From: a virus | Lineage: Duplodnaviria; Heunggongvirae; Uroviricota; Caudoviricetes | IMG/VR virus record: IMGVR_UViG_2690316311_000019 | Length of the DNA stretch: 64,000 nucleotides | Reading direction: 5' to 3' (one strand) | Shown: positions 54,819-64,000 of the stretch, one piece after another | Layout of the letters: each line of letters starts with the position of its first letter | Numbering within the stretch: position 1 is the stretch's first letter | The notes under the pieces: generated by a model | Databases searched by the model: none | Seen by the model: the letters and a program-made list of their open reading frames with translations, nothing else | What the model was told of the DNA's origin: nothing | Program-made: the position numbers and the translations under genes

Positions 54819-55064
54819 AAAGAACCCGCCAATTGGCGGGTTCTTTATTTATTGAATTAGCATTCAACTCCCGATTGTTATAGCGAACACTATGTAACAG
54901 AATAATATTATTAACATTTTAGTAATAAGTTGATTATTCATCTTCTGTATTCGCAAAGCGTAAGTATTGCTCATAGTTTCTTATTCCAGTACATTGTGAT
55001 TCGTTGAGGCAAAAGAATAGTGGCAATTCTACTGGCAATAAACTCAAGTAAGAGGTTGTAAACA

Positions 55065-55352
55065 ATGGAAAAACTGAACAATTTCTTAGACAAAATATCC
55101 ACCACAAACACTCGCGCAGGCCACACTATTACCCGCATAGCTAAGCTAAGCGATGCGGGTGTCAGTGATGACGTAATCGCACTTCAACTGTCCAGTAACA
55201 GTGCAAATGGCTTCCGATATACAGCAGATGAAATAAAAGCGTATAAGAAGCTCCACAATGATGTAAAAACTAAAGTGGGAATTACATCCAAACAAACAAA
55301 AGCATTAATCAAAGATCAAGAGCTGACTTTTGTTGCATTGCCTCAAAACTAA
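55065..55352 (+). CDS. Small hypothetical protein in AT-rich island
   Basis: 95-aa ORF. Confidence 0.45.
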   Translation: MEKLNNFLDKISTTNTRAGHTITRIAKLSDAGVSDDVIALQLSSNSANGFRYTADEIKAYKKLHNDVKTKVGITSKQTKALIKDQELTFVALPQN

Positions 55353-55380
55353 ATTTGTTTAAAGCTATAGCTAACAAAGA

Positions 55381-55426
55381 GTTATAAGAGCGATAGTGAT
55401 AAATTTATCATTGTCGCTCTTATAAC
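55381..55426. repeat. 46-bp near-perfect palindrome
   Basis: gttataagagcgatagtgataaa|tttatcattgtcgctcttataac. Confidence 0.8.
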
Positions 55427-55555
55427 CTTGTTAAAGATAAGAATATAACCCAAAAGATATACATGGGTTATTAAGGCCATAATTATCAGGCAAATAACAT
55501 GAAGTCGTCTATGTGATGGATGAAATTTGAACAATCAATTCTATGCCAATTCCTG

Positions 55556-55876
55556 TCAATACAAGAGTTGGTTGACTGTTTCATCACTAAAACCCTCTTC
55601 ATCGTCATCATCATCCTCATCGCCACCATCTACTGCTGGCCAATCAACAAACCAGCCAGCGTAAAGATGCAGCGTTCGGAGAACATCACTTGCGGGAGCA
55701 TCAAGGGTGTTAACGAATCCCATATAGCTATTGGGATTTGCCCCAGCTATGGCTTCAGCGATCATGTCCTCGGTAATGTCACCGGAGATAATGCTTAAAC
55801 GCCCGGAAACTTCTTCATTATCATCAAATTCGATAATGGCATCTCCACCTAATGGCGCTGCGATTTTAATCTGCAT
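55556..55876 (-). CDS. Small acidic protein at the 3' end of the dar operon
   Basis: 106-aa ORF with DGGDEDDDDDEEG tract. Confidence 0.5.
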   Translation of the reverse strand: MQIKIAAPLGGDAIIEFDDNEEVSGRLSIISGDITEDMIAEAIAGANPNSYMGFVNTLDAPASDVLRTLHLYAGWFVDWPAVDGGDEDDDDDEEGFSDETVNQLLY

Positions 55877-58853
55877 TATTTAGCTCCTTTGCCACACCTA
55901 ATAACAGTTCCAGCAATCCGTCACCATTCATCAGTGATGCGGCAGCGGCCTCTTTGTCATGATACAACTGAAGAGCCATAGAGAATACTTCCGTTGCTGA
56001 CGTTTTGGAAATAGTCGGTGATTTCTGCCGAATTTTCCCGGTGTTACTTACTGAGGCTGGCGGGTATACCTTCGCCATATAAATATTACTCAATCGAGAT
56101 CTGAAGCACCATTCAGGCTTGCCACGCCCACCGATATTGACGAAAGATGGCTTATCCCCTTCAACATTGGCCTTCAGGAATGACCGGGCTTTCTCTAACA
56201 AACCTGGGTTACTGTACTCAAGATGATGACCCAGCTCGTGCCACAGTGCACTTGCATTTTCATCGTTCAAATTGACAGCAACAACACCATTAAGATTTGC
56301 ATATGCCCTTCCCTGGTGGTGAACCACCTTTGATAAGGTCGAAATTTTACCGCCGGTCAGGCGATAAATATCAGCAAGTTCCTTGCGCAGGTCTATCCCA
56401 CCATTCTGTCCAGCGCGGGCTTCTTCCACTTCTTCCGTGATAAAAGAGTCGGCCCACTCAAGAGCTTTTTCTTCAGATACGGATGAGTTGGCGATCGCAC
56501 TGTTCATGGCGGATAACACTTTCTCGTGGACCGAACCCATACTTCGCTGATTCATTTGCCAGCGTGTCTGCGGGTTATATGAGAATCGCTTAAGTAGTTG
56601 GTCAAGATGCTCAAGTTCTTCTTCGCTGACATACTTTTTAGCCTCACCAATAATGCCGGGGAGAATATTGCCGTTAGGATTAAACGCTCGCGAAAGGAAG
56701 TGTTTCAGCGCCCCCATGCCCTCCGATGCTTCAATATCACCAATAACCCGGTTAACAATGGCCGCACTCTTCGGATTAGCATCCGCCAACGCTCTGACTA
56801 CAATTTGCAGGGACGATACGACCTCACGCTGCATATCCGTCCTGATCTCATCAATAAACTCTGGCGTTATGCCGTGCTCTTTAAGGATATCCCTGCCTTC
56901 CGCCGTTACCCCATCGATATCACCGACATGTTTATTAACCCGACTTTGCAATGCCTTAAATGCCTTCAGAATTCCACGGGCATCATCCGCTTTACTAACG
57001 GCCTTCCTGAATGCTGGCAAGAAGTCTGAGTTAACCTCATTTTGTTGATCGGCCCACTGAATGGAGGCTTCTTTCATCTCGTCCAGAGTCAGATCACCCA
57101 ACGCGGTATGGTCTGTGAATATGAGCGATAACCTCTGAACCATTTCTGCCAATGGTGATGCCGAATGCGCCGCGCTAAGGAATGCTTTCACCCTGGTTGG
57201 GCGAATGGAAAACCAGTCAATAGCTGGTGGCATATCTCCGTTTTTTATCGCCTGCGCTATCTCGTCAAAGCCATCGCGCCCAAGGGAGGATGCGTGATTT
57301 AACAAGCCGCGAAGTAACGAATTGCTGATACCGAATAATCGGCACCATTTTTTCACGTCGGCAACAGGCATTCGAACAAAATGCGCAAGCACTTGAACAA
57401 GCTGTTCATCCTGGGGATCTGTACGGGAAAGCAGCCTGATCAGATGAATAATGTCTTTGATGCCGGATGCCCGATGTAATAGCAAACTGGTATACGGAGC
57501 AACACCGTTGTAACTACCGCCGGAAACGGACTCGAAAAGACCGCCGGATATCCCTTGCATGCCTTCGTTTTCCAGTTCCTGAGACACCTGGCGAAGGATA
57601 TCCTGTAACGACACATCGCCGCCGCCAAACATATCCCCCAGCGCCTGGCCCTGGTGCTGTAACTCATCATTGATACGTTGCGCCATCAACTTAAAGGCGG
57701 TGGCCATACGCTTCGCGCTACGGTTATTCGCGACGATGAACAACGCGAGTGCTTTCACTTCCGGGGCCGTTTCGCTGAACATATCCCCCTGAGCAATAAC
57801 ATCGGTAATATGCTGGCCTGACTCCTTCGATTGCCTTACCAGGTCTACCGCATCTTTCAATGCCGCCAGCGCCTTTTTATCGAGGCTATCCGCTGTCTCA
57901 ATGCCATCAACAATAGTTGTCACAGCCTGCTTGTGCGCTTCTCCTGATAAAGCCTGCATCTGGACAAAATCATTGGCTGCCGCATTAAGCGCCGTCAGAA
58001 CATTACGCATATCCGGATCAGGTTCTTCTGCAACCATCCTTACCAGGCGCGCATCCTTATATGCCTTGGCAAAGATCGCGTTTTGTATACGGTCTACAAG
58101 TTGCCGTGTTGGTCGCCCATCTTCAGTTACAAGGCCAGCCGCCTGTGTGGCACCAACTTGCGTCATAAATCCGCGAATAAACGCGTCATTACTGCGGCTA
58201 AGCAGATCTCCGCTTTCTGACGGGTTAAAAAGCGCCATCATCGCCGGTGTTATGCTGTCGGCATCAACAAAAGCCTTTTCACTGGCTGCCATTTCCTGAA
58301 GATCAGAAATATTTGAGTCCTTGGCAAACTGAACGCGGTCAACCTTAGTTAACCGGCGGCGCACCAGTACCGGAGCCGTCATTGATTCAACCTTTTCAGG
58401 TCGTATGCCGAATTCGGTCGCATGATCAATCAGGTACTCACGATACCGATCCGCATTGCCGTCCTGATAGGCTTTGATGATCCCCATGGTCCGTCCATTA
58501 CCTGACTCAACGGCATTGTCCTCACCAATTATCGGCGCACCATGGCTGGATAAACCGGAATCAGTAAGCTGAGCAGGCCGCAAATCTTTGGATATCTGGT
58601 TAACCTGAAGAAGGCTGGATGCGCGGGTCCGGTCGCGCGGCTGAAGTTCCTGGGGATAGTCAGGATTAATTTTCCCATCCAGAGTATTGGATACCAAAAG
58701 AGCTGAGGCATCGACGATATCAAACGCTGTTTTTACCTCGTCTCCCTTCGCTGTCACCACATACGAAACCCGCCCATAATCGGGCAGGTTCTTTAGCAGC
58801 TCGATCAGCGTTTCTATGCTGGTGGCCATTACCACCTGATCGCTTAAGCTCAT
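55866..58853 (-). CDS. ddrB: DdrB-like large protein with HExxH zincin-type motif
   Basis: 995 aa; WHELGHH motif; downstream of darA and ddrA. Confidence 0.7.
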   Translation of the reverse strand: MSLSDQVVMATSIETLIELLKNLPDYGRVSYVVTAKGDEVKTAFDIVDASALLVSNTLDGKINPDYPQELQPRDRTRASSLLQVNQISKDLRPAQLTDSGLSSHGAPIIGEDNAVESGNGRTMGIIKAYQDGNADRYREYLIDHATEFGIRPEKVESMTAPVLVRRRLTKVDRVQFAKDSNISDLQEMAASEKAFVDADSITPAMMALFNPSESGDLLSRSNDAFIRGFMTQVGATQAAGLVTEDGRPTRQLVDRIQNAIFAKAYKDARLVRMVAEEPDPDMRNVLTALNAAANDFVQMQALSGEAHKQAVTTIVDGIETADSLDKKALAALKDAVDLVRQSKESGQHITDVIAQGDMFSETAPEVKALALFIVANNRSAKRMATAFKLMAQRINDELQHQGQALGDMFGGGDVSLQDILRQVSQELENEGMQGISGGLFESVSGGSYNGVAPYTSLLLHRASGIKDIIHLIRLLSRTDPQDEQLVQVLAHFVRMPVADVKKWCRLFGISNSLLRGLLNHASSLGRDGFDEIAQAIKNGDMPPAIDWFSIRPTRVKAFLSAAHSASPLAEMVQRLSLIFTDHTALGDLTLDEMKEASIQWADQQNEVNSDFLPAFRKAVSKADDARGILKAFKALQSRVNKHVGDIDGVTAEGRDILKEHGITPEFIDEIRTDMQREVVSSLQIVVRALADANPKSAAIVNRVIGDIEASEGMGALKHFLSRAFNPNGNILPGIIGEAKKYVSEEELEHLDQLLKRFSYNPQTRWQMNQRSMGSVHEKVLSAMNSAIANSSVSEEKALEWADSFITEEVEEARAGQNGGIDLRKELADIYRLTGGKISTLSKVVHHQGRAYANLNGVVAVNLNDENASALWHELGHHLEYSNPGLLEKARSFLKANVEGDKPSFVNIGGRGKPEWCFRSRLSNIYMAKVYPPASVSNTGKIRQKSPTISKTSATEVFSMALQLYHDKEAAAASLMNGDGLLELLLGVAKELNNAD

Positions 58854-58865
58854 CCCTGTTACGCC

Positions 58866-59231
58866 TTATGCTGCCTCTTTAATGTTGGCGGCTATCCATG
58901 CCGCCGTGTGCTGTTTAACCTGGTCCAGGTCGATGTATGTGCCAACATATTGACTCAAATCCTGCAAGGTACCGATAAATGCATCGGTGCTCTGATCGAC
59001 GAATTTATCAGCCAGGAAATCAGCAACCAGTTTTGGCACACCATCATGTACCGAAGGTTGTTTTTCCTCGCCACTACTGCCGCCGGACACACCGTACCCC
59101 ATCTGTTGCATGATCTGGTCAATTTCATCGCTGATATCCAGCAACTCCATGCCACTCGCGGTAGCCGCTTTGGACATCAGAGCATCCAACTTATCGCTGA
59201 GATCCATTAACTCAATAGCTGATAGTGTCAT
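58866..59231 (-). CDS. ddrA: DdrA-like protein
   Basis: 121-aa ORF coupled to darA. Confidence 0.6.
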   Translation of the reverse strand: MTLSAIELMDLSDKLDALMSKAATASGMELLDISDEIDQIMQQMGYGVSGGSSGEEKQPSVHDGVPKLVADFLADKFVDQSTDAFIGTLQDLSQYVGTYIDLDQVKQHTAAWIAANIKEAA

Positions 59232-61147
59232 GCCGCTACCCCCGCTTTCTGGATTGCTACCAGCAGATCAGCCAGGTGGCGAGCAGCGCCATTAACCAGC
59301 TCTTCGTTTTCCTCAAAACGTCCGGCAGCCTGAAGGGCTGCAATCGCTTCCCGGACATTGCCCCGGGCGTTACGGATCTCCGCCATGTCAGTGCTTTGCA
59401 TATCCATCACGTTATTGAGATATTCAATGGCTTTATTAGCCTCTGCATCTGCTTCGCTAACCGTTTCATCAGGCTGTGCCGGGGCCGGTTCTGGCTGAGT
59501 AATCTCACCGACTTCGGCCTGCAATGCATTGATCATGCTCTGCACCATTTTCTCGGTGCCAGCGCCCCCCGGAAACGCAATATTGGGGAAAGTTTTTTGA
59601 AACTGAGTCTTCAGCATTACGCGGAACTCGTCTGGTGAGCTGGTGGCCAGCTCCAGAGCTTTTTGTGCATATTTGCCAAACGGACCATTAGTAAGTGTCT
59701 TCGCCAGGAAGTCGAAAGAATCCTCGCGAGGCAATAACTTCAGGTCGTACTCACTCATTTGCTGATCAGAAAGCGGGGTATCGTAAGTAGCAATGCCGTA
59801 GCGTGCATATTCATAATACGGGTCACCTTCATCAGGGCGCGGCAGAATTGCTTTGTTACCTTCAGGTATTGCGCCAGGGGCCGCCGGACGCATTTGCAGG
59901 GCATATCGATATGCACCTACAGAGACTTCTGGTTCAGGCGAAGAGCTACCGGTATCCTCCGCTGGTTCAGGTTCGACGTTTTCCGGTTTATGTTCTTCTG
60001 GTTGGACCAGGTATTCCGATACATTACCCGCTTTATAGGCTTTAAACAGCTTGCCGATCGCATCTGCCATGTCCACACCCTGTATGGATTTAGCCTTGAT
60101 CATGTATACGCTGCCATCCGGATCGGTTAACTGGATATACCCTTCGCCATCCCCAATGAATTGCTTCATTGATGCACCATTACTGAGCGTCGCTTCCCCG
60201 TCCATATGCATACGATTTTTGATACTGGCAAGGCGATCCGTCAGCGCGCGAGAGTGCCCACCAGTCATCCCCGCAGGAGCAATGGTATCGCGCCCACCAG
60301 TGCGATTGAGCTGATCAATCTCCGCCTGCAAACGCTCATTTTCTTGATAAAGAGAATCCGCTTCCGAAGCAACCACGTTAATTTTCTGCTCCAGATCTGC
60401 CTTCTGGCCTTCTACCGCTGCCACCTGATCCGCGAGGTCGCTCATGGCATCCTCTTTCTGGTCACTGTCAGCCTGTAGTTGGGTTATTTCATCAACCAGG
60501 GCTTTTTTCTTCTTCTGCGCACGCTGGAATTTTGCCGAGTTTTTCTCTGCAAGGTTGGCAAGTTTCATGGTGACCTGCGCCAGCGTCATATCACGTCCAC
60601 TCATCGGAGCAACGGTATGAGTAACGTCTTTTTTATTCAGTAAGAACTGGAAAGCAATCAGCGTATCGCTATTGGTGATCCGGTTTTCCGCTGTCGGGCT
60701 ATGAAACAGAATGCTGATAGTCTGACCATCACTGAGCGGAATAATGGCTGGCAGAACCGGCAGCCCGTTAACGTTACGCGCCCGGCCAATTTCAGCCCCG
60801 CCGATCGCGCGTGCACCGTTCTGGGCCACGTCCCCCGTTTTATCACTCCCCGCAGAGATTCCGGTACCATTCAGCTTCTGGTTCAATGCCCGGACAAATG
60901 CCTGCATGGTCCGGTGTAGCTGCAAACGAGTAGAACTAATCGCCTCCAGTAAATCCGTAGCACACCAGTGGATCGGCGTGTCATAGAAGAACGTAGCCTC
61001 GATTTCCTCCAGGGTGTTGGATTCCGTCATCAGATAGCGGTCCTCACCGGCCATTAATGCGCGATATTCATCATCAGTCACTGGCGGGGGAAGCACGTCA
61101 AGCCCAGGCTTGATCGCCACCCCTTTATTGATATTGAACTGTTCCAT
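59228..61147 (-). CDS. darA: DarA antirestriction/head internal protein
   Basis: 639 aa, matches P1 DarA length; synteny. Confidence 0.8.
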   Translation of the reverse strand: MEQFNINKGVAIKPGLDVLPPPVTDDEYRALMAGEDRYLMTESNTLEEIEATFFYDTPIHWCATDLLEAISSTRLQLHRTMQAFVRALNQKLNGTGISAGSDKTGDVAQNGARAIGGAEIGRARNVNGLPVLPAIIPLSDGQTISILFHSPTAENRITNSDTLIAFQFLLNKKDVTHTVAPMSGRDMTLAQVTMKLANLAEKNSAKFQRAQKKKKALVDEITQLQADSDQKEDAMSDLADQVAAVEGQKADLEQKINVVASEADSLYQENERLQAEIDQLNRTGGRDTIAPAGMTGGHSRALTDRLASIKNRMHMDGEATLSNGASMKQFIGDGEGYIQLTDPDGSVYMIKAKSIQGVDMADAIGKLFKAYKAGNVSEYLVQPEEHKPENVEPEPAEDTGSSSPEPEVSVGAYRYALQMRPAAPGAIPEGNKAILPRPDEGDPYYEYARYGIATYDTPLSDQQMSEYDLKLLPREDSFDFLAKTLTNGPFGKYAQKALELATSSPDEFRVMLKTQFQKTFPNIAFPGGAGTEKMVQSMINALQAEVGEITQPEPAPAQPDETVSEADAEANKAIEYLNNVMDMQSTDMAEIRNARGNVREAIAALQAAGRFEENEELVNGAARHLADLLVAIQKAGVAA

Positions 61148-61148
61148 G

Positions 61149-61760
61149 TTAATTTCCTGCTTTCAGTTGCTTAAGACGGCGTTTGAGTTCGCCATTTCGG
61201 GCCTTTTCGTTATTGAGTCGGCCTGTCTCCTTATCCAGCTTCGCCCGCAAATCAGTGATCTGCTGTTGATTGAAAGACACCGAGTTCTGCGCTGATTTAT
61301 AAGCGGCAACCACCTGAGCATTCCGCTGTTTTGCCTCTTGCAGGCGCTGAAAGTTGGATTTTACTGCCGGTTTCTTGTCTACCGGATTGGCAACACGTTT
61401 CGCTTTGGCGATCAGTGATTTCTGGAATTTTGCGGAGTTTTTGCGGGCCGCTTGCCCCATGACGGTACCAAGCGTCTTGATATCCGGCGACTGAGCGTTA
61501 GGAATAGCTTTTCCATTCAGCCTCACAGACGATATATCGCCAGTATCGTTTACCTGTATGGCAAGAATTTGTCCGTCGTTAAGAACCAGCTTTGCGGTTT
61601 TAACTTTAACGCCATCTTTCGTTGTTGCGCGGTTGCTGGAGTCAACCTCAATTACCGTAACACCGGTTTTATTGATCGCCGCGATAAGGGATTTCAGCCC
61701 CTTTTCATTAACCTGGTCAAAATCGACCGTTGCATACTTATTTTTCGTCATCTGACACAT
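61149..61760 (-). CDS. hdf: Hdf
   Basis: 203-aa ORF upstream of darA. Confidence 0.65.
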   Translation of the reverse strand: MCQMTKNKYATVDFDQVNEKGLKSLIAAINKTGVTVIEVDSSNRATTKDGVKVKTAKLVLNDGQILAIQVNDTGDISSVRLNGKAIPNAQSPDIKTLGTVMGQAARKNSAKFQKSLIAKAKRVANPVDKKPAVKSNFQRLQEAKQRNAQVVAAYKSAQNSVSFNQQQITDLRAKLDKETGRLNNEKARNGELKRRLKQLKAGN

Positions 61761-62181
61761 CCTGTGCGAGATTTATTACGTAACTTCTGCGGATTTGCTG
61801 AGTAACAGGGAAAATCCGATACAACGGGTTAATGAACGAGTCGCCATGCGTAACCATGACGTTGAAATGCCACAGCCGTTCTCCTTTACCCATATATTCA
61901 GTGGGTATGTACAACCATTCACTGTTTTCGCCCTGTTCAGCCGACGTCAGACAACGTTGTTCGCCTTCAATCACTGTCGTTGGCTTCTGAACATCGCGGA
62001 TCCAATATCTGACCGTTGCGCCGCGCAAAAACGGGAATTTAGACCGGTATTTGAACGGCACCCGGATGAAACCCGGTTTAATTTCCACATCACCAAGTTC
62101 TAAATGCGTGATGTCCTTGCGTTTTAGCAAATAGCGATCGGCTAAGGCTAACGCAAGAGCGCATACACCCCAGCCAATCAT
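61738..62181 (-). CDS. lydB: LydB (antiholin-like)
   Basis: 147-aa ORF overlapping lydA. Confidence 0.6.
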   Translation of the reverse strand: MIGWGVCALALALADRYLLKRKDITHLELGDVEIKPGFIRVPFKYRSKFPFLRGATVRYWIRDVQKPTTVIEGEQRCLTSAEQGENSEWLYIPTEYMGKGERLWHFNVMVTHGDSFINPLYRIFPVTQQIRRSYVINLAQDVSDDEK

Positions 62182-62507
62182 TTCCCACCTCCCTTTTTCA
62201 CCAAACTTGTAAGAACATTCAGAATGCTATCGATATTCACTCGTTTCATCCCTGAAATCACCTCATGACCGTTATTGCTGGCTATCGTTACCATTAAGTA
62301 CGTAATTGATAACTCCCAGCCCTCGTGTTGCCCCAATAGGTACGCCACCGCGCCAGCTGTCACTGCAACAAAGATCTCCGTAACCAATCCCAACAAATTG
62401 CCAGACTGGCGACCGTCTCGGACATCCATCAGGAACGTGCCTATCCCACCAATTACTGAAAGCAGGAGCGCAATAGCAACTGGAGCTAATTCCTGTGTGT
62501 CAAGCAC
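62178..62507 (-). CDS. lydA: Holin LydA
   Basis: 109 aa with hydrophobic TM segments. Confidence 0.7.
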   Translation of the reverse strand: MLDTQELAPVAIALLLSVIGGIGTFLMDVRDGRQSGNLLGLVTEIFVAVTAGAVAYLLGQHEGWELSITYLMVTIASNNGHEVISGMKRVNIDSILNVLTSLVKKGGGK

Positions 62508-63331
62508 AAGTTCCCTCCTACGTTGTCAGGAGGTAATGGTATGCAAAGTAACTTCTCAACCGGTCATGCAAAGACAACAAGCGGAAAAAGAAAAGCAAAG
62601 CCTGCTACAGCTCGTCAGGGATAAAACTCAGCTCTGGGACTCACAGTTACGGCTAGGCATTATTTCCGTTCAGGGTAAACAAAAATTAACCGAGTGGATT
62701 CTCTATGCGCAGAAAGTCGAATCCACGGATACCTCCATCCTTCCAGTAACGTTTCCCGAAAAGCCGGAATGAGGAAAGGCCCGGAATCGGGCCTTAATTA
62801 ATATCTATAAGCTCAACAAATAAGAGCTAACAATTTTGTTAATTTCCTCTGGAAATAATGCATTGTGCTTATATATACCTGAAGCTATATTAAAGAGCGT
62901 CATGTAAAAAATAAACCAATCAATTAAATCTATTTTCAACAAACAAGTCAAAATTTTTAACAGATATGTATAGAAATGGCAAGCCATAAATTAATAATGA
63001 CATCCTTAATAAGTCTAAAGAAACACTAAATAGATAAAATATAAATTATTACATCCAAAAATATAGAAAGTGTTGGCAATCTTGCAACTCATTATCAATA
63101 CAATATTGACATCCCTTTAGCGCTCAGTTTAAAATTAACATTTGTGTTTACATTGTGCGTTGATTTAGTTTAGCAGGAACGCAGTAACACACTGATGATT
63201 ATTGTTTTAATTATAATGTCAATATATAAACATAGAAACCAAAAAATATAGGCAGTTGCAATATGTTATGTTACTTAATAGCTATTCACTTTGTCATCTT
63301 CGGGAATTCAAAAGCTCTATTGAGCTACTGG

Positions 63332-63835
63332 ATGGCTGAAATCATCAGGCGTGAAAAAATGGATGTTTGGCGACTATTAAGAGAGAAGAAGCAGCGCAAT
63401 CGGAATTTCCTTTTCTGGTGGAGACTGGCTAATGAAATGTATATTAATGGCAATAAATTACATAAGAAAGCAGCCAGAAAGTTAAACAATAATATAATTA
63501 ACAGATTTGGTTGCGAAATTGGATTGGGCGCAAATATTGGAAAAGGTTTAACAATTCCCCATCATACTGGAATTGTTGTTCATTTTGCTGTTGATGCTGG
63601 TGAAAATCTGGTTTTGCGACAGAATACTACCATTGGACAGGTAGATGGTGACATGCCTGGTTCAAGAGTAAAAATTGGTAATAACGTTGATATCGGAGCT
63701 AATTGTTGCATCATTGGATTATCACGTAAAATTGGGGATAATGTAAAAATAGGTGCAATGTCTTTTATAAATAAAGATATACCATCGAACTGCACATATA
63801 TAACAAAAAAGAGCGGTGTTGTATTGTATAAATAG
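63332..63835 (+). CDS. Hexapeptide-repeat acyltransferase (CysE/LacA-like left-handed beta-helix); start uncertain (track 63263)
   Basis: Repeated [LIV]G-x-x-x-x motifs (IGNNVDIGANCCIIG, IGDNVKIGAMSFI); AT-rich. Confidence 0.7.
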   Translation: MAEIIRREKMDVWRLLREKKQRNRNFLFWWRLANEMYINGNKLHKKAARKLNNNIINRFGCEIGLGANIGKGLTIPHHTGIVVHFAVDAGENLVLRQNTTIGQVDGDMPGSRVKIGNNVDIGANCCIIGLSRKIGDNVKIGAMSFINKDIPSNCTYITKKSGVVLYK

Positions 63836-63843
63836 AGTACATG

Positions 63844-63880
63844 AAGCCATCAATATTTCTATCGATGGCTTTATCCTTTT
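63844..63880 (+). terminator. Rho-independent terminator after acyltransferase gene
   Basis: aagccatc...gatggctt hairpin followed by T-rich run. Confidence 0.65.
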
Positions 63881-64000
63881 ATTGCGGGGCGACTGGCCAC
63901 TCAACATCCGATGCTACTGTTGTATCAACACGATTCAACAATACCCGATATGTCTTCCATGCAGTCAGTAACGATGCCTCTTCCTCCGTCGCAATATCCA
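63879..64000 (-). CDS. 3' end of a leftward gene whose start lies beyond the window
   Basis: Open minus-strand frame from window edge to TAA at 63879-63881. Confidence 0.4.

Follow-up and report, generated by a model that had tools for sequence, protein, structure and literature searches.

Two described systems may be regarded as the nearest functional precedents for the phage gene considered here. The first one, NeuO, is the polysialic-acid O-acetyltransferase encoded by prophage CUS-3 of Escherichia coli K1: it has a left-handed beta-helix fold, depends on acetyl coenzyme A (acetyl-CoA), is encoded apart from the polysaccharide cluster of its host and acts on a surface glycan (PMC3046976). 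The second one, the NeaT/Oac type, is represented by a single-gene acyltransferase moron of exceptional AT-richness (PMC3573123), which reads opposite to the fibre genes and occupies the P2 site flanked by the tail genes and by G, the tail-fibre assembly gene. Regarding genomic position, the closest systems are the invertible C segment of phage P1 and the G segment of phage Mu, whose architecture comprises, in the P1-like version: (i) the cin gene; (ii) two cix sites; and (iii) two convergent sets of fibre-tip and chaperone genes. The present work deals with an AT-rich island carrying an acetyltransferase gene, which is found at the end of a 64,000-nucleotide stretch of DNA (hereafter, the window) from the Caudoviricetes virus record IMGVR_UViG_2690316311_000019. 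This end of the window belongs to a P1-like phage-plasmid, and the island is embedded in the remains of such a switch.

Over positions 62500-64000, the window shows 100% identity with eight E. coli plasmids, pO111_2 from E. coli O111:H- 11128 being one of them; its identity with two sequenced Punavirus phages, vB_EcoM-Ro157c2YLVW and JL22, amounts to 94-96%. The block of leftward genes darA, hdf, lydB and lydA ends at 62507, and 100% identity with P1 stops at 62567, just beyond the late promoter LPdar. At that point, compared to P1 and JL22, approximately 2.87 kb have been lost in a deletion that removed (i) lydC; (ii) cin with its promoters and enhancer; (iii) cixL; (iv) Sv'; and (v) the 5' two thirds of U'. 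In consequence, the island now abuts lydA. What is left of U' still matches the Pfam family Caudo_TAP (E 5e-18), over profile positions 60-131 of 131 only. A base-level check of the deletion junction revealed no useful microhomology and no cix-like site. The same junction is present in phage vB_EcoM-Ro157c2YLVW, whose host is a Shiga toxin-producing E. coli (STEC) O157. An identical junction was also observed in many STEC plasmids (O111, O26 and O157), including variants whose cassette (described below) differs by 4%.

Beyond the junction, homology with P1 extends through the GC-rich hairpin that follows U' (-15.1 kcal/mol on the + strand and -14.6 kcal/mol on the - strand; z about -3), and the island begins directly after it. 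While in the C segment of P1 the stop codons of the convergent genes U' and U are 28 bp apart, here about 1.1 kb of cargo separates U' from tfa, the tail-fibre assembly gene. We know of no cargo between the convergent chaperone genes of Mu. A preliminary description of this DNA, made from its letters alone, had placed the island next to the lysis operon: the contact with lydA is real, but it exists only through the deletion, and the true position of the island is inside the C segment. The same description had the sequence turning AT-rich immediately beyond lydA. Actually, the first 290 bp (62508-62797) have a GC content of 45-49% and hold the P1 late promoter region together with the truncated U', which had gone unrecognised.

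In JL22, the order of genes is cin, Sv', U', spacer and acetyltransferase (there named 'sacF'), followed by a convergent tfa and a full tail-fibre gene. Plasmid pLH09-a-D (NZ_CP100548.1; locus L106, 1400-5810) has the same spacer and acetyltransferase, with the whole C segment inverted relative to cin/lydA when compared to JL22. The cin gene is present in both of them, and both share the architecture of the P1 and Mu segments. Since JL22 and pLH09-a-D show opposite orientations, the acetyltransferase rides in the middle of a segment that inverts in nature. As regards the quality of the pLH09-a-D record, many of its genes are frame-shifted, probably owing to sequencing error.

Compared to these Cin/Gin-type switches, the one in the window is dead. 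A tblastn search with P1 Cin detected no homologue in the 64-kb window nor in 19.5 kb of pO111_2 around the locus, and the expectation that cin and an invertible segment would follow beyond position 64000 was not borne out, the 10 kb next to the window in that near-identical plasmid containing no Cin homologue. Only one cix site (cixR-like, with one mismatch) is retained in pO111_2, in the tail-fibre gene beyond the window, whereas JL22 has both. Neither are two complete sets of fibre tip and chaperone present, as Sv' is gone and U' is cut down to its last 68 codons. Flanked by the convergent genes U' and tfa, the acetyltransferase gene occupies the centre of a C segment that is now frozen. 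The switch is judged to be destroyed, its orientation being fixed for the expression of Sc-Sv and tfa, with the other fibre set gone.

Regarding the gene itself, its 190-codon frame is intact in all the relatives examined, and pairwise ratios of nonsynonymous to synonymous substitution rates (dN/dS) amount to 0.09-0.21; the gene is real and under purifying selection. The later start of the JL22 record, which leaves 158 codons, was rejected, since the extra 32 N-terminal residues are conserved in a family alignment of 24 sequences. As the preliminary description had recognised, the protein is a member of the left-handed beta-helix (hexapeptide) acyltransferase superfamily: its AlphaFold (AF2) model (predicted local distance difference test, 89; predicted template modelling score, 0.83) consists of five helices followed by a left-handed beta-helix, and Pfam Hexapep matches fall slightly below the cut-off. 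Residue His100, the counterpart of the catalytic His in an alignment to solved serine acetyltransferases, is invariant in eight of eight sequences and nearly invariant in the 24 family sequences; its acidic partner, Glu85, is retained as well (Asp in some relatives). The protein is a full-length match to PHROG 2154 (E 1.9e-83), its residues 13-190 being aligned to positions 3-181 of the 185-position profile. This family is labelled 'unknown function' in the database and has signature motifs of its own, FWWR, RQNTTIG and IGAMSF. Taken at sequence level, it appears to be an active acetyltransferase of the CysE/WcaB-like branch, as distinct from a CysE equivalog, and is probably a soluble, trimeric O-acetyltransferase that presumably uses acetyl-CoA.

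The closest sequences and folds are those of CysE and WcaB/EpsC, which have in common with this protein a helical N-terminal domain, the beta-helix and a catalytic His with an acidic partner. Among the NCBIfam models, the nearest named ones are EpsC (77.5 bits against a cut-off of 150), CysE (TIGR01172, 65.6 against 210.65; NF008349, 42.2 against 397) and WcaB (56.6 against 196), all of them far below the curated cut-offs; LacA (32.5 against 347), WbbJ (24.2 against 243), Maa (21.9 against 314), WcaF (20.7 against 192) and Vat (14 against 300) score lower still. The protein thus reaches the cut-off of none of CysE, LacA, WbbJ and Vat, with which the preliminary description had wanted it compared. 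Regardless of the kinship with CysE, it is very improbable that this is a genuine serine O-acetyltransferase, that is, an auxiliary metabolic gene that would raise cysteine production in the lysogen or while the phage multiplies. Apart from the scores, (i) no SATase_N domain was matched in the Pfam search; (ii) in the alignment to solved serine acetyltransferases, the Asp that precedes the catalytic His is replaced by Pro (LDHATG versus IPHHTG), and the Arg-His-Pro loop reads Arg-Val-Lys (GDRHPKIG versus GSRVKIG) and is variable across the family; (iii) the protein has 190 residues versus about 273 for CysE; and (iv) its relatives are located in lipopolysaccharide (LPS) clusters or beside tail fibres, not in cys regulon contexts. 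From the CysE structures of E. coli and Haemophilus influenzae, we take that Asp and the Arg-His pair of the 'RHP' loop to be the serine/cysteine-binding residues. The name 'serine O-acetyltransferase' found in databases is probably wrong.

A xenobiotic or antibiotic acetyltransferase of the Vat or CatB type, which had also been put forward for this gene, has in its favour the common superfamily fold and the fact that P1-like plasmids often carry resistance genes (PMC9603915). Yet neither the curated cut-off (see the Vat score above) nor the closest fold places the protein among Vat/CatB, and this option is extremely unlikely. With respect to the precedents, NeuO shares with this protein a prophage-borne beta-helix and a catalytic His on a helix loop, but the protein shows neither a close fold match to NeuO/OatWY nor the N-terminal heptanucleotide (poly-psi) repeat of NeuO. 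NeaT and Oac, in turn, are integral-membrane proteins of the Acyl_transf_3 family (PF01757), whereas this protein has no PF01757 match and is modelled as a soluble beta-helix. On these comparisons, it is assigned to none of the CysE, WcaB, EpsC, LacA, WbbJ, Vat, NeuO and NeaT/Oac families. A literature search for a characterised member of the family returned only unexplained mentions, in JL22 (PMC9603915) and in a table of Citrobacter rodentium prophages (PMC6456863).

The composition and distribution of the island are those of a moron. The GC content, 45-52% until approximately 62800, drops to 23-30% over 62800-63299 and stays at 33-40% to approximately 63899; this low-GC stretch is made up of a 465-bp spacer, the acetyltransferase open reading frame (ORF) and a hairpin. 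The island is absent from P1, its GC content (23-40%) contrasts with that of the flanks (about 50%), and 33 of 494 matching P1-like plasmid records carry it. Conservation at this position with typical GC content in all P1-like genomes, which the preliminary description had named as fatal to its moron proposal, is hence not what is observed. That proposal, a moron altering a surface polysaccharide, stands as far as cargo absent from P1 is concerned; for its other half, a glycan-related role is the best supported one and is what we infer from the evidence given below.

The spacer had been described as AT-rich and nearly gene-free, and so it is. The sole ORF of at least 30 amino acids in it (60 amino acids; minus strand, 62805-62987) was rejected as a gene: it has no family match, is frame-shifted in JL22 and vB_EcoM-Ro157c2YLVW, and is destroyed in pLH09-a-D. 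As this ORF is broken in three other spacer variants, the stretch is truly gene-free. Among 5426 complete E. coli genomes, 65 contain the spacer, always on plasmids (P1-like ones only), and it has never been annotated. An Rfam scan of 62400-64000 (E <= 1) yielded no family at threshold in the spacer, the only match being a chance-level fragment of transfer-messenger RNA (18 bits versus 70). Similarly, a search for repeats around the island that could represent element ends or target duplications gave short chance matches only. The half of the spacer closest to the acetyltransferase gene is better conserved, and a promoter-like site is located there about 130 bp upstream of the start codon, with both hexamers unchanged in four of four spacer variants. 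Consensus matching suggests that the spacer may act as a promoter/leader region; in the P2-like context, a different promoter-like site (10/12) precedes the gene.

The terminator claimed for the gene in the preliminary description corresponds to a strong hairpin between the acetyltransferase and tfa (-14.7 kcal/mol, z -4.7 on the + strand; -16.4 kcal/mol, z -4.9 on the - strand), with none of 200 shuffles being as stable. On the + strand it is followed by UUUAUCCUUUUAUUG, a U-rich tail. A simple terminator scan missed this hairpin owing to one bulge. Taken together, the island can be read as a phage moron, namely a single gene with a predicted promoter-like site, conserved in the spacer variants, and a predicted hairpin terminator.

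The acetyltransferase gene is found far beyond P1-like elements. When pO111_2 was compared by blastn to other loci, the homology formed one continuous block of about 1.8 kb comprising (i) the acetyltransferase; (ii) tfa; and (iii) the last ~610 nt (~200 codons) of the tail-fibre gene. A P2-like prophage of O104:H4 has this cassette at 96% identity, and a different myovirus prophage has all three parts of it at 87%. In a P2-like remnant of O157:H7, the acetyltransferase and most of tfa are present at 91% identity, the block being truncated there by an insertion sequence (IS) element. The homology begins no more than 8 nt from the start codon of the acetyltransferase and, therefore, the P1-type spacer lies outside the shared block. 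From these alignments, the gene is concluded to move between unrelated myoviruses as a cassette with the fibre tip and its chaperone. Altogether, the gene is present in 530 of 5426 complete E. coli genomes (approximately 10%), mostly on the chromosome, in hosts that include serotypes O157, O111, O26 and O104; a tail-fibre assembly gene adjoins it in 40 of 40 cases among the matches listed.

In the P2-like setting, the acetyltransferase is located where the fibre genes give way to the tail genes, a known moron site and the same genomic niche as that of the NeaT/Oac precedent. Tail-fibre genes of other types are likewise the neighbours of more distant relatives, both those with 55-69% protein identity, found in Buttiauxella and at the end of a prophage next to copA, and a 43%-identical copy in Citrobacter phage phiNP. 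Two exceptions to this context were found: a Salmonella copy beside an integrase fragment, and a copy on plasmids of enteropathogenic E. coli (EPEC) downstream of the bfp operon. The latter, a 52%-identical member (L098-L100, 5001-5594), is located just 3' of bundle-forming-pilus genes (Peptidase_A24, SLT); its surroundings are rich in IS66, and this copy is not associated with a phage. In some P2-like prophages (L008-L010, 6617-7605), a truncated Caudo_TAP gene (87 amino acids) and a 222-residue methyltransferase gene are inserted between the acetyltransferase and tfa, an insert that represents further cargo of the same hot spot.

Such contexts bear on a different possibility, namely that the enzyme has a non-glycan target and serves anti-phage defence or counter-defence by acetylating, for instance, a protein, a nucleotide, some tRNA-linked substrate or the fibre of the phage itself. 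The P2 fibre/tail-gene site and prophage ends are known to collect defence genes. In phiNP, the gene also adjoins hicAB, and a hok/gef-like ORF of 46 amino acids lies about 200 bp upstream of a 55%-identical acetyltransferase at the prophage end near copA (L004-L007, 5662-5803). The moron site between P2 fibre genes and tail genes has itself been described (PMC3573123). Nevertheless, none of the PADLOC defence models matched the acetyltransferase, and its chromosomal relatives are embedded in LPS biosynthesis operons. Moreover, the acetylating toxins known to us have the GNAT fold, not a beta-helix. A role in defence is hence considered distinctly unlikely.

The relatives encoded in bacterial chromosomes provide indications of the acceptor. 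A species-level survey recovered 15 true family members (L016-L030; 39-51% identity), while the remaining loci of the genome-wide survey (L031-L095), mostly generic beta-helix enzymes with less than ~39% identity, were excluded. The chromosomal members are full-length PHROG 2154 matches (E 1e-53 to 1e-62) which keep His100 and the family motifs. In Leminorella grimontii (L018, 1309-9818), the acetyltransferase is the last gene of a waa operon with GT4, GT8 (WaaO/J-type C-terminal domain), WaaY and MptE-like genes, followed by a convergent waaL. In Pseudomonas abyssi (L017), it comes after hldE, msbA and an LPS-kinase-like gene. In Halopseudomonas (L019), it is adjoined by a gene of the Kdo/WaaP LPS-kinase family, and the layout of L026 matches by ORF size. 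In Halomonas, it is again preceded by an MptE-like gene, and it faces a gene for UDP-glucose dehydrogenase. Finally, in Xenorhabdus bovienii prophages (L102/L103, 5001-6393), the acetyltransferase and a GT25 'LPS biosynthesis' glycosyltransferase form a pair located between an integrase and a tail fibre, possibly a two-enzyme LPS-modifying cassette.

The same contexts can be consulted on whether another envelope glycan is acetylated instead (colanic acid, enterobacterial common antigen, capsule or a nucleotide-sugar precursor), which would have the same consequence, i.e., surface conversion. AT-richness is typical of polysaccharide gene clusters. Besides CysE, the nearest named models are exopolysaccharide enzymes, EpsC and WcaB, and the neighbours of some relatives are genes for nonulosonic acid (NeuB) or for UDP-glucose dehydrogenase. 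On the other hand, the protein scores below the cut-offs of both models, and the clearest operon contexts are those of the LPS core (the waa operon and the hldE-msbA-kinase cluster). In addition, hosts of many serotypes carry the gene, which makes a serotype-specific O-unit or capsule a less likely acceptor than a shared structure. A glycan other than LPS is, on balance, an unlikely target.

In the lysogen, then, the enzyme would acetylate a sugar of a cell-envelope glycan during its assembly on the cytoplasmic face of the inner membrane, the likeliest acceptor being the LPS core or another part of LPS. The LPS core is assembled on that cytoplasmic face, and thus a cytoplasmic acetyl-CoA-dependent enzyme can reach it. 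The altered surface would affect LPS-binding phages, resulting in superinfection exclusion at the level of adsorption; alternatively, the benefit could be that the progeny are spared from adsorbing to lysogens and debris. Recognition by the host immune system could also change. The layout of the locus, the deletion, the fold, the conserved His/acid pair, the purifying selection, the shared cassette and the neighbourhoods of the relatives are observations, and from there we infer the use of acetyl-CoA, the acceptor, the expression in the lysogen and the exclusion phenotype; the reading of the gene as a lysogenic-conversion moron that O-acetylates an envelope glycan or LPS is put forward at evenly balanced confidence, and the LPS core as the specific acceptor is a more tentative proposal, falling short of that balance.

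Several observations weigh against this reading. Nine of the 15 surveyed relatives lie outside polysaccharide/LPS clusters, alone among unrelated genes or beside IS elements, and several of these nine are clearly lower in GC content than their surroundings. The members found in LPS clusters are only 39-46% identical to this protein and, in consequence, the acceptor may differ. Both the promoter and the terminator are predictions from consensus and folding energy. Among the relatives of the partner fibre tip, which are tips of the lambda-Stf and T-even type, some bind OmpC, not LPS. The only paper found to discuss the gene states that it is not known why JL22 carries it (PMC9603915). Lastly, morons are commonly inserted downstream of tail-fibre genes, a general hot spot (PMC3573123), and, hence, adjacency alone is no proof of a functional link.

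A broader suggestion is that tip, chaperone and acetyltransferase constitute one portable host-range/exclusion cassette, in which the enzyme would acetylate the LPS structure bound by its partner tip. A phage gaining a new tip by recombination would thereby also be equipped to conceal that receptor on its own lysogen. This idea is speculative and we consider it improbable. In intact P1-like elements, host range and the orientation of the enzyme gene with respect to late fibre transcription (co-directional after Sc-Sv'-U', or convergent with tfa) would then switch at the same time.

The coordinates of the features are collected in Table 1. The leftward gene that had been seen entering at the window edge is tfa: its stop codon is at 63879 and the stop-free minus-strand translation of 63879-63998 corresponds to the C-terminus of the tail-fibre assembly protein. 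In a near-identical plasmid, tfa has 579 nt and the tail-fibre gene S comes next, outside the window. A partial Rfam match, IS009, was noted at 63916-64000 on the minus strand (59 bits versus a gathering score of 117); it lies inside the tfa coding sequence and is cut by the window end. Over 55000-64000, the window differs from pO111_2 by 49 mismatches in 9 kb, with none in the last 1.5 kb, a pattern that suggests mosaic relatedness among P1-like plasmids.

Table 1. Features of the island and its borders (positions of the window; strand given where the feature has one).
Feature	Position	Strand	Basis
lydA holin gene (last of the darA-hdf-lydB-lydA block)	62178-62507	-	109-amino-acid ORF; holin/lydA annotation in P1, JL22 and pO111_2
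lydA upstream region, including late promoter LPdar	62508-62567	-	Identical to P1
LPdar late promoter	~62536-62554	-	Coordinate transfer from P1 31212-31230 (NC_005856 annotation)
Deletion junction (~2.87 kb gone versus P1 and JL22)	62567-62568		blastn of pO111_2 versus P1 and JL22
U' 3' remnant (68 codons)	62568-62772	+	86-89% DNA identity to U' of Mu, SfMu and P1; Caudo_TAP
GC-rich hairpin after U' (the P1 U'/U intergenic hairpin)	62776-62795		Folding energy and P1 homology
AT-rich non-coding spacer	62798-63262		Composition; ORF not conserved; no Rfam match at threshold
Promoter-like TTGACA-18-TAAAAT	63106-63135	+	Consensus match 11/12
Acetyltransferase gene (190 codons, ~35% GC, PHROG 2154)	63263-63835	+	N-terminal helical domain and left-handed beta-helix
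Hairpin between convergent acetyltransferase and tfa	63841-63874		Probable two-way terminator (energy prediction)
tfa 3' end (tail-fibre assembly)	63879-64000	-	Translation; pO111_2 and JL22 annotation

The gene is already present in databases, and phage acetyltransferase morons are a known kind. What is new here is (i) its location in a decayed tail-fibre switch; (ii) the deletion that removed cin; (iii) the cassette of tip, chaperone and enzyme, shared across phage types; and (iv) the link of the family to LPS-core clusters. Near-identical copies are carried by about one tenth of complete E. coli genomes, including O157:H7, O111, O26 and O104:H4 strains. The locus shows that cargo can reside at the centre of a Cin-type invertible segment, and that the switch has decayed by deletion across a lineage of STEC plasmids. 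If the acetylation of LPS proves true, the enzyme would represent a second fold class of phage-borne LPS acetylase, beside the membrane-bound Oac type. In that case, phage susceptibility would be affected and, hence, the choice of phages for the therapy and biocontrol of STEC, and possibly also the antigenicity of LPS.

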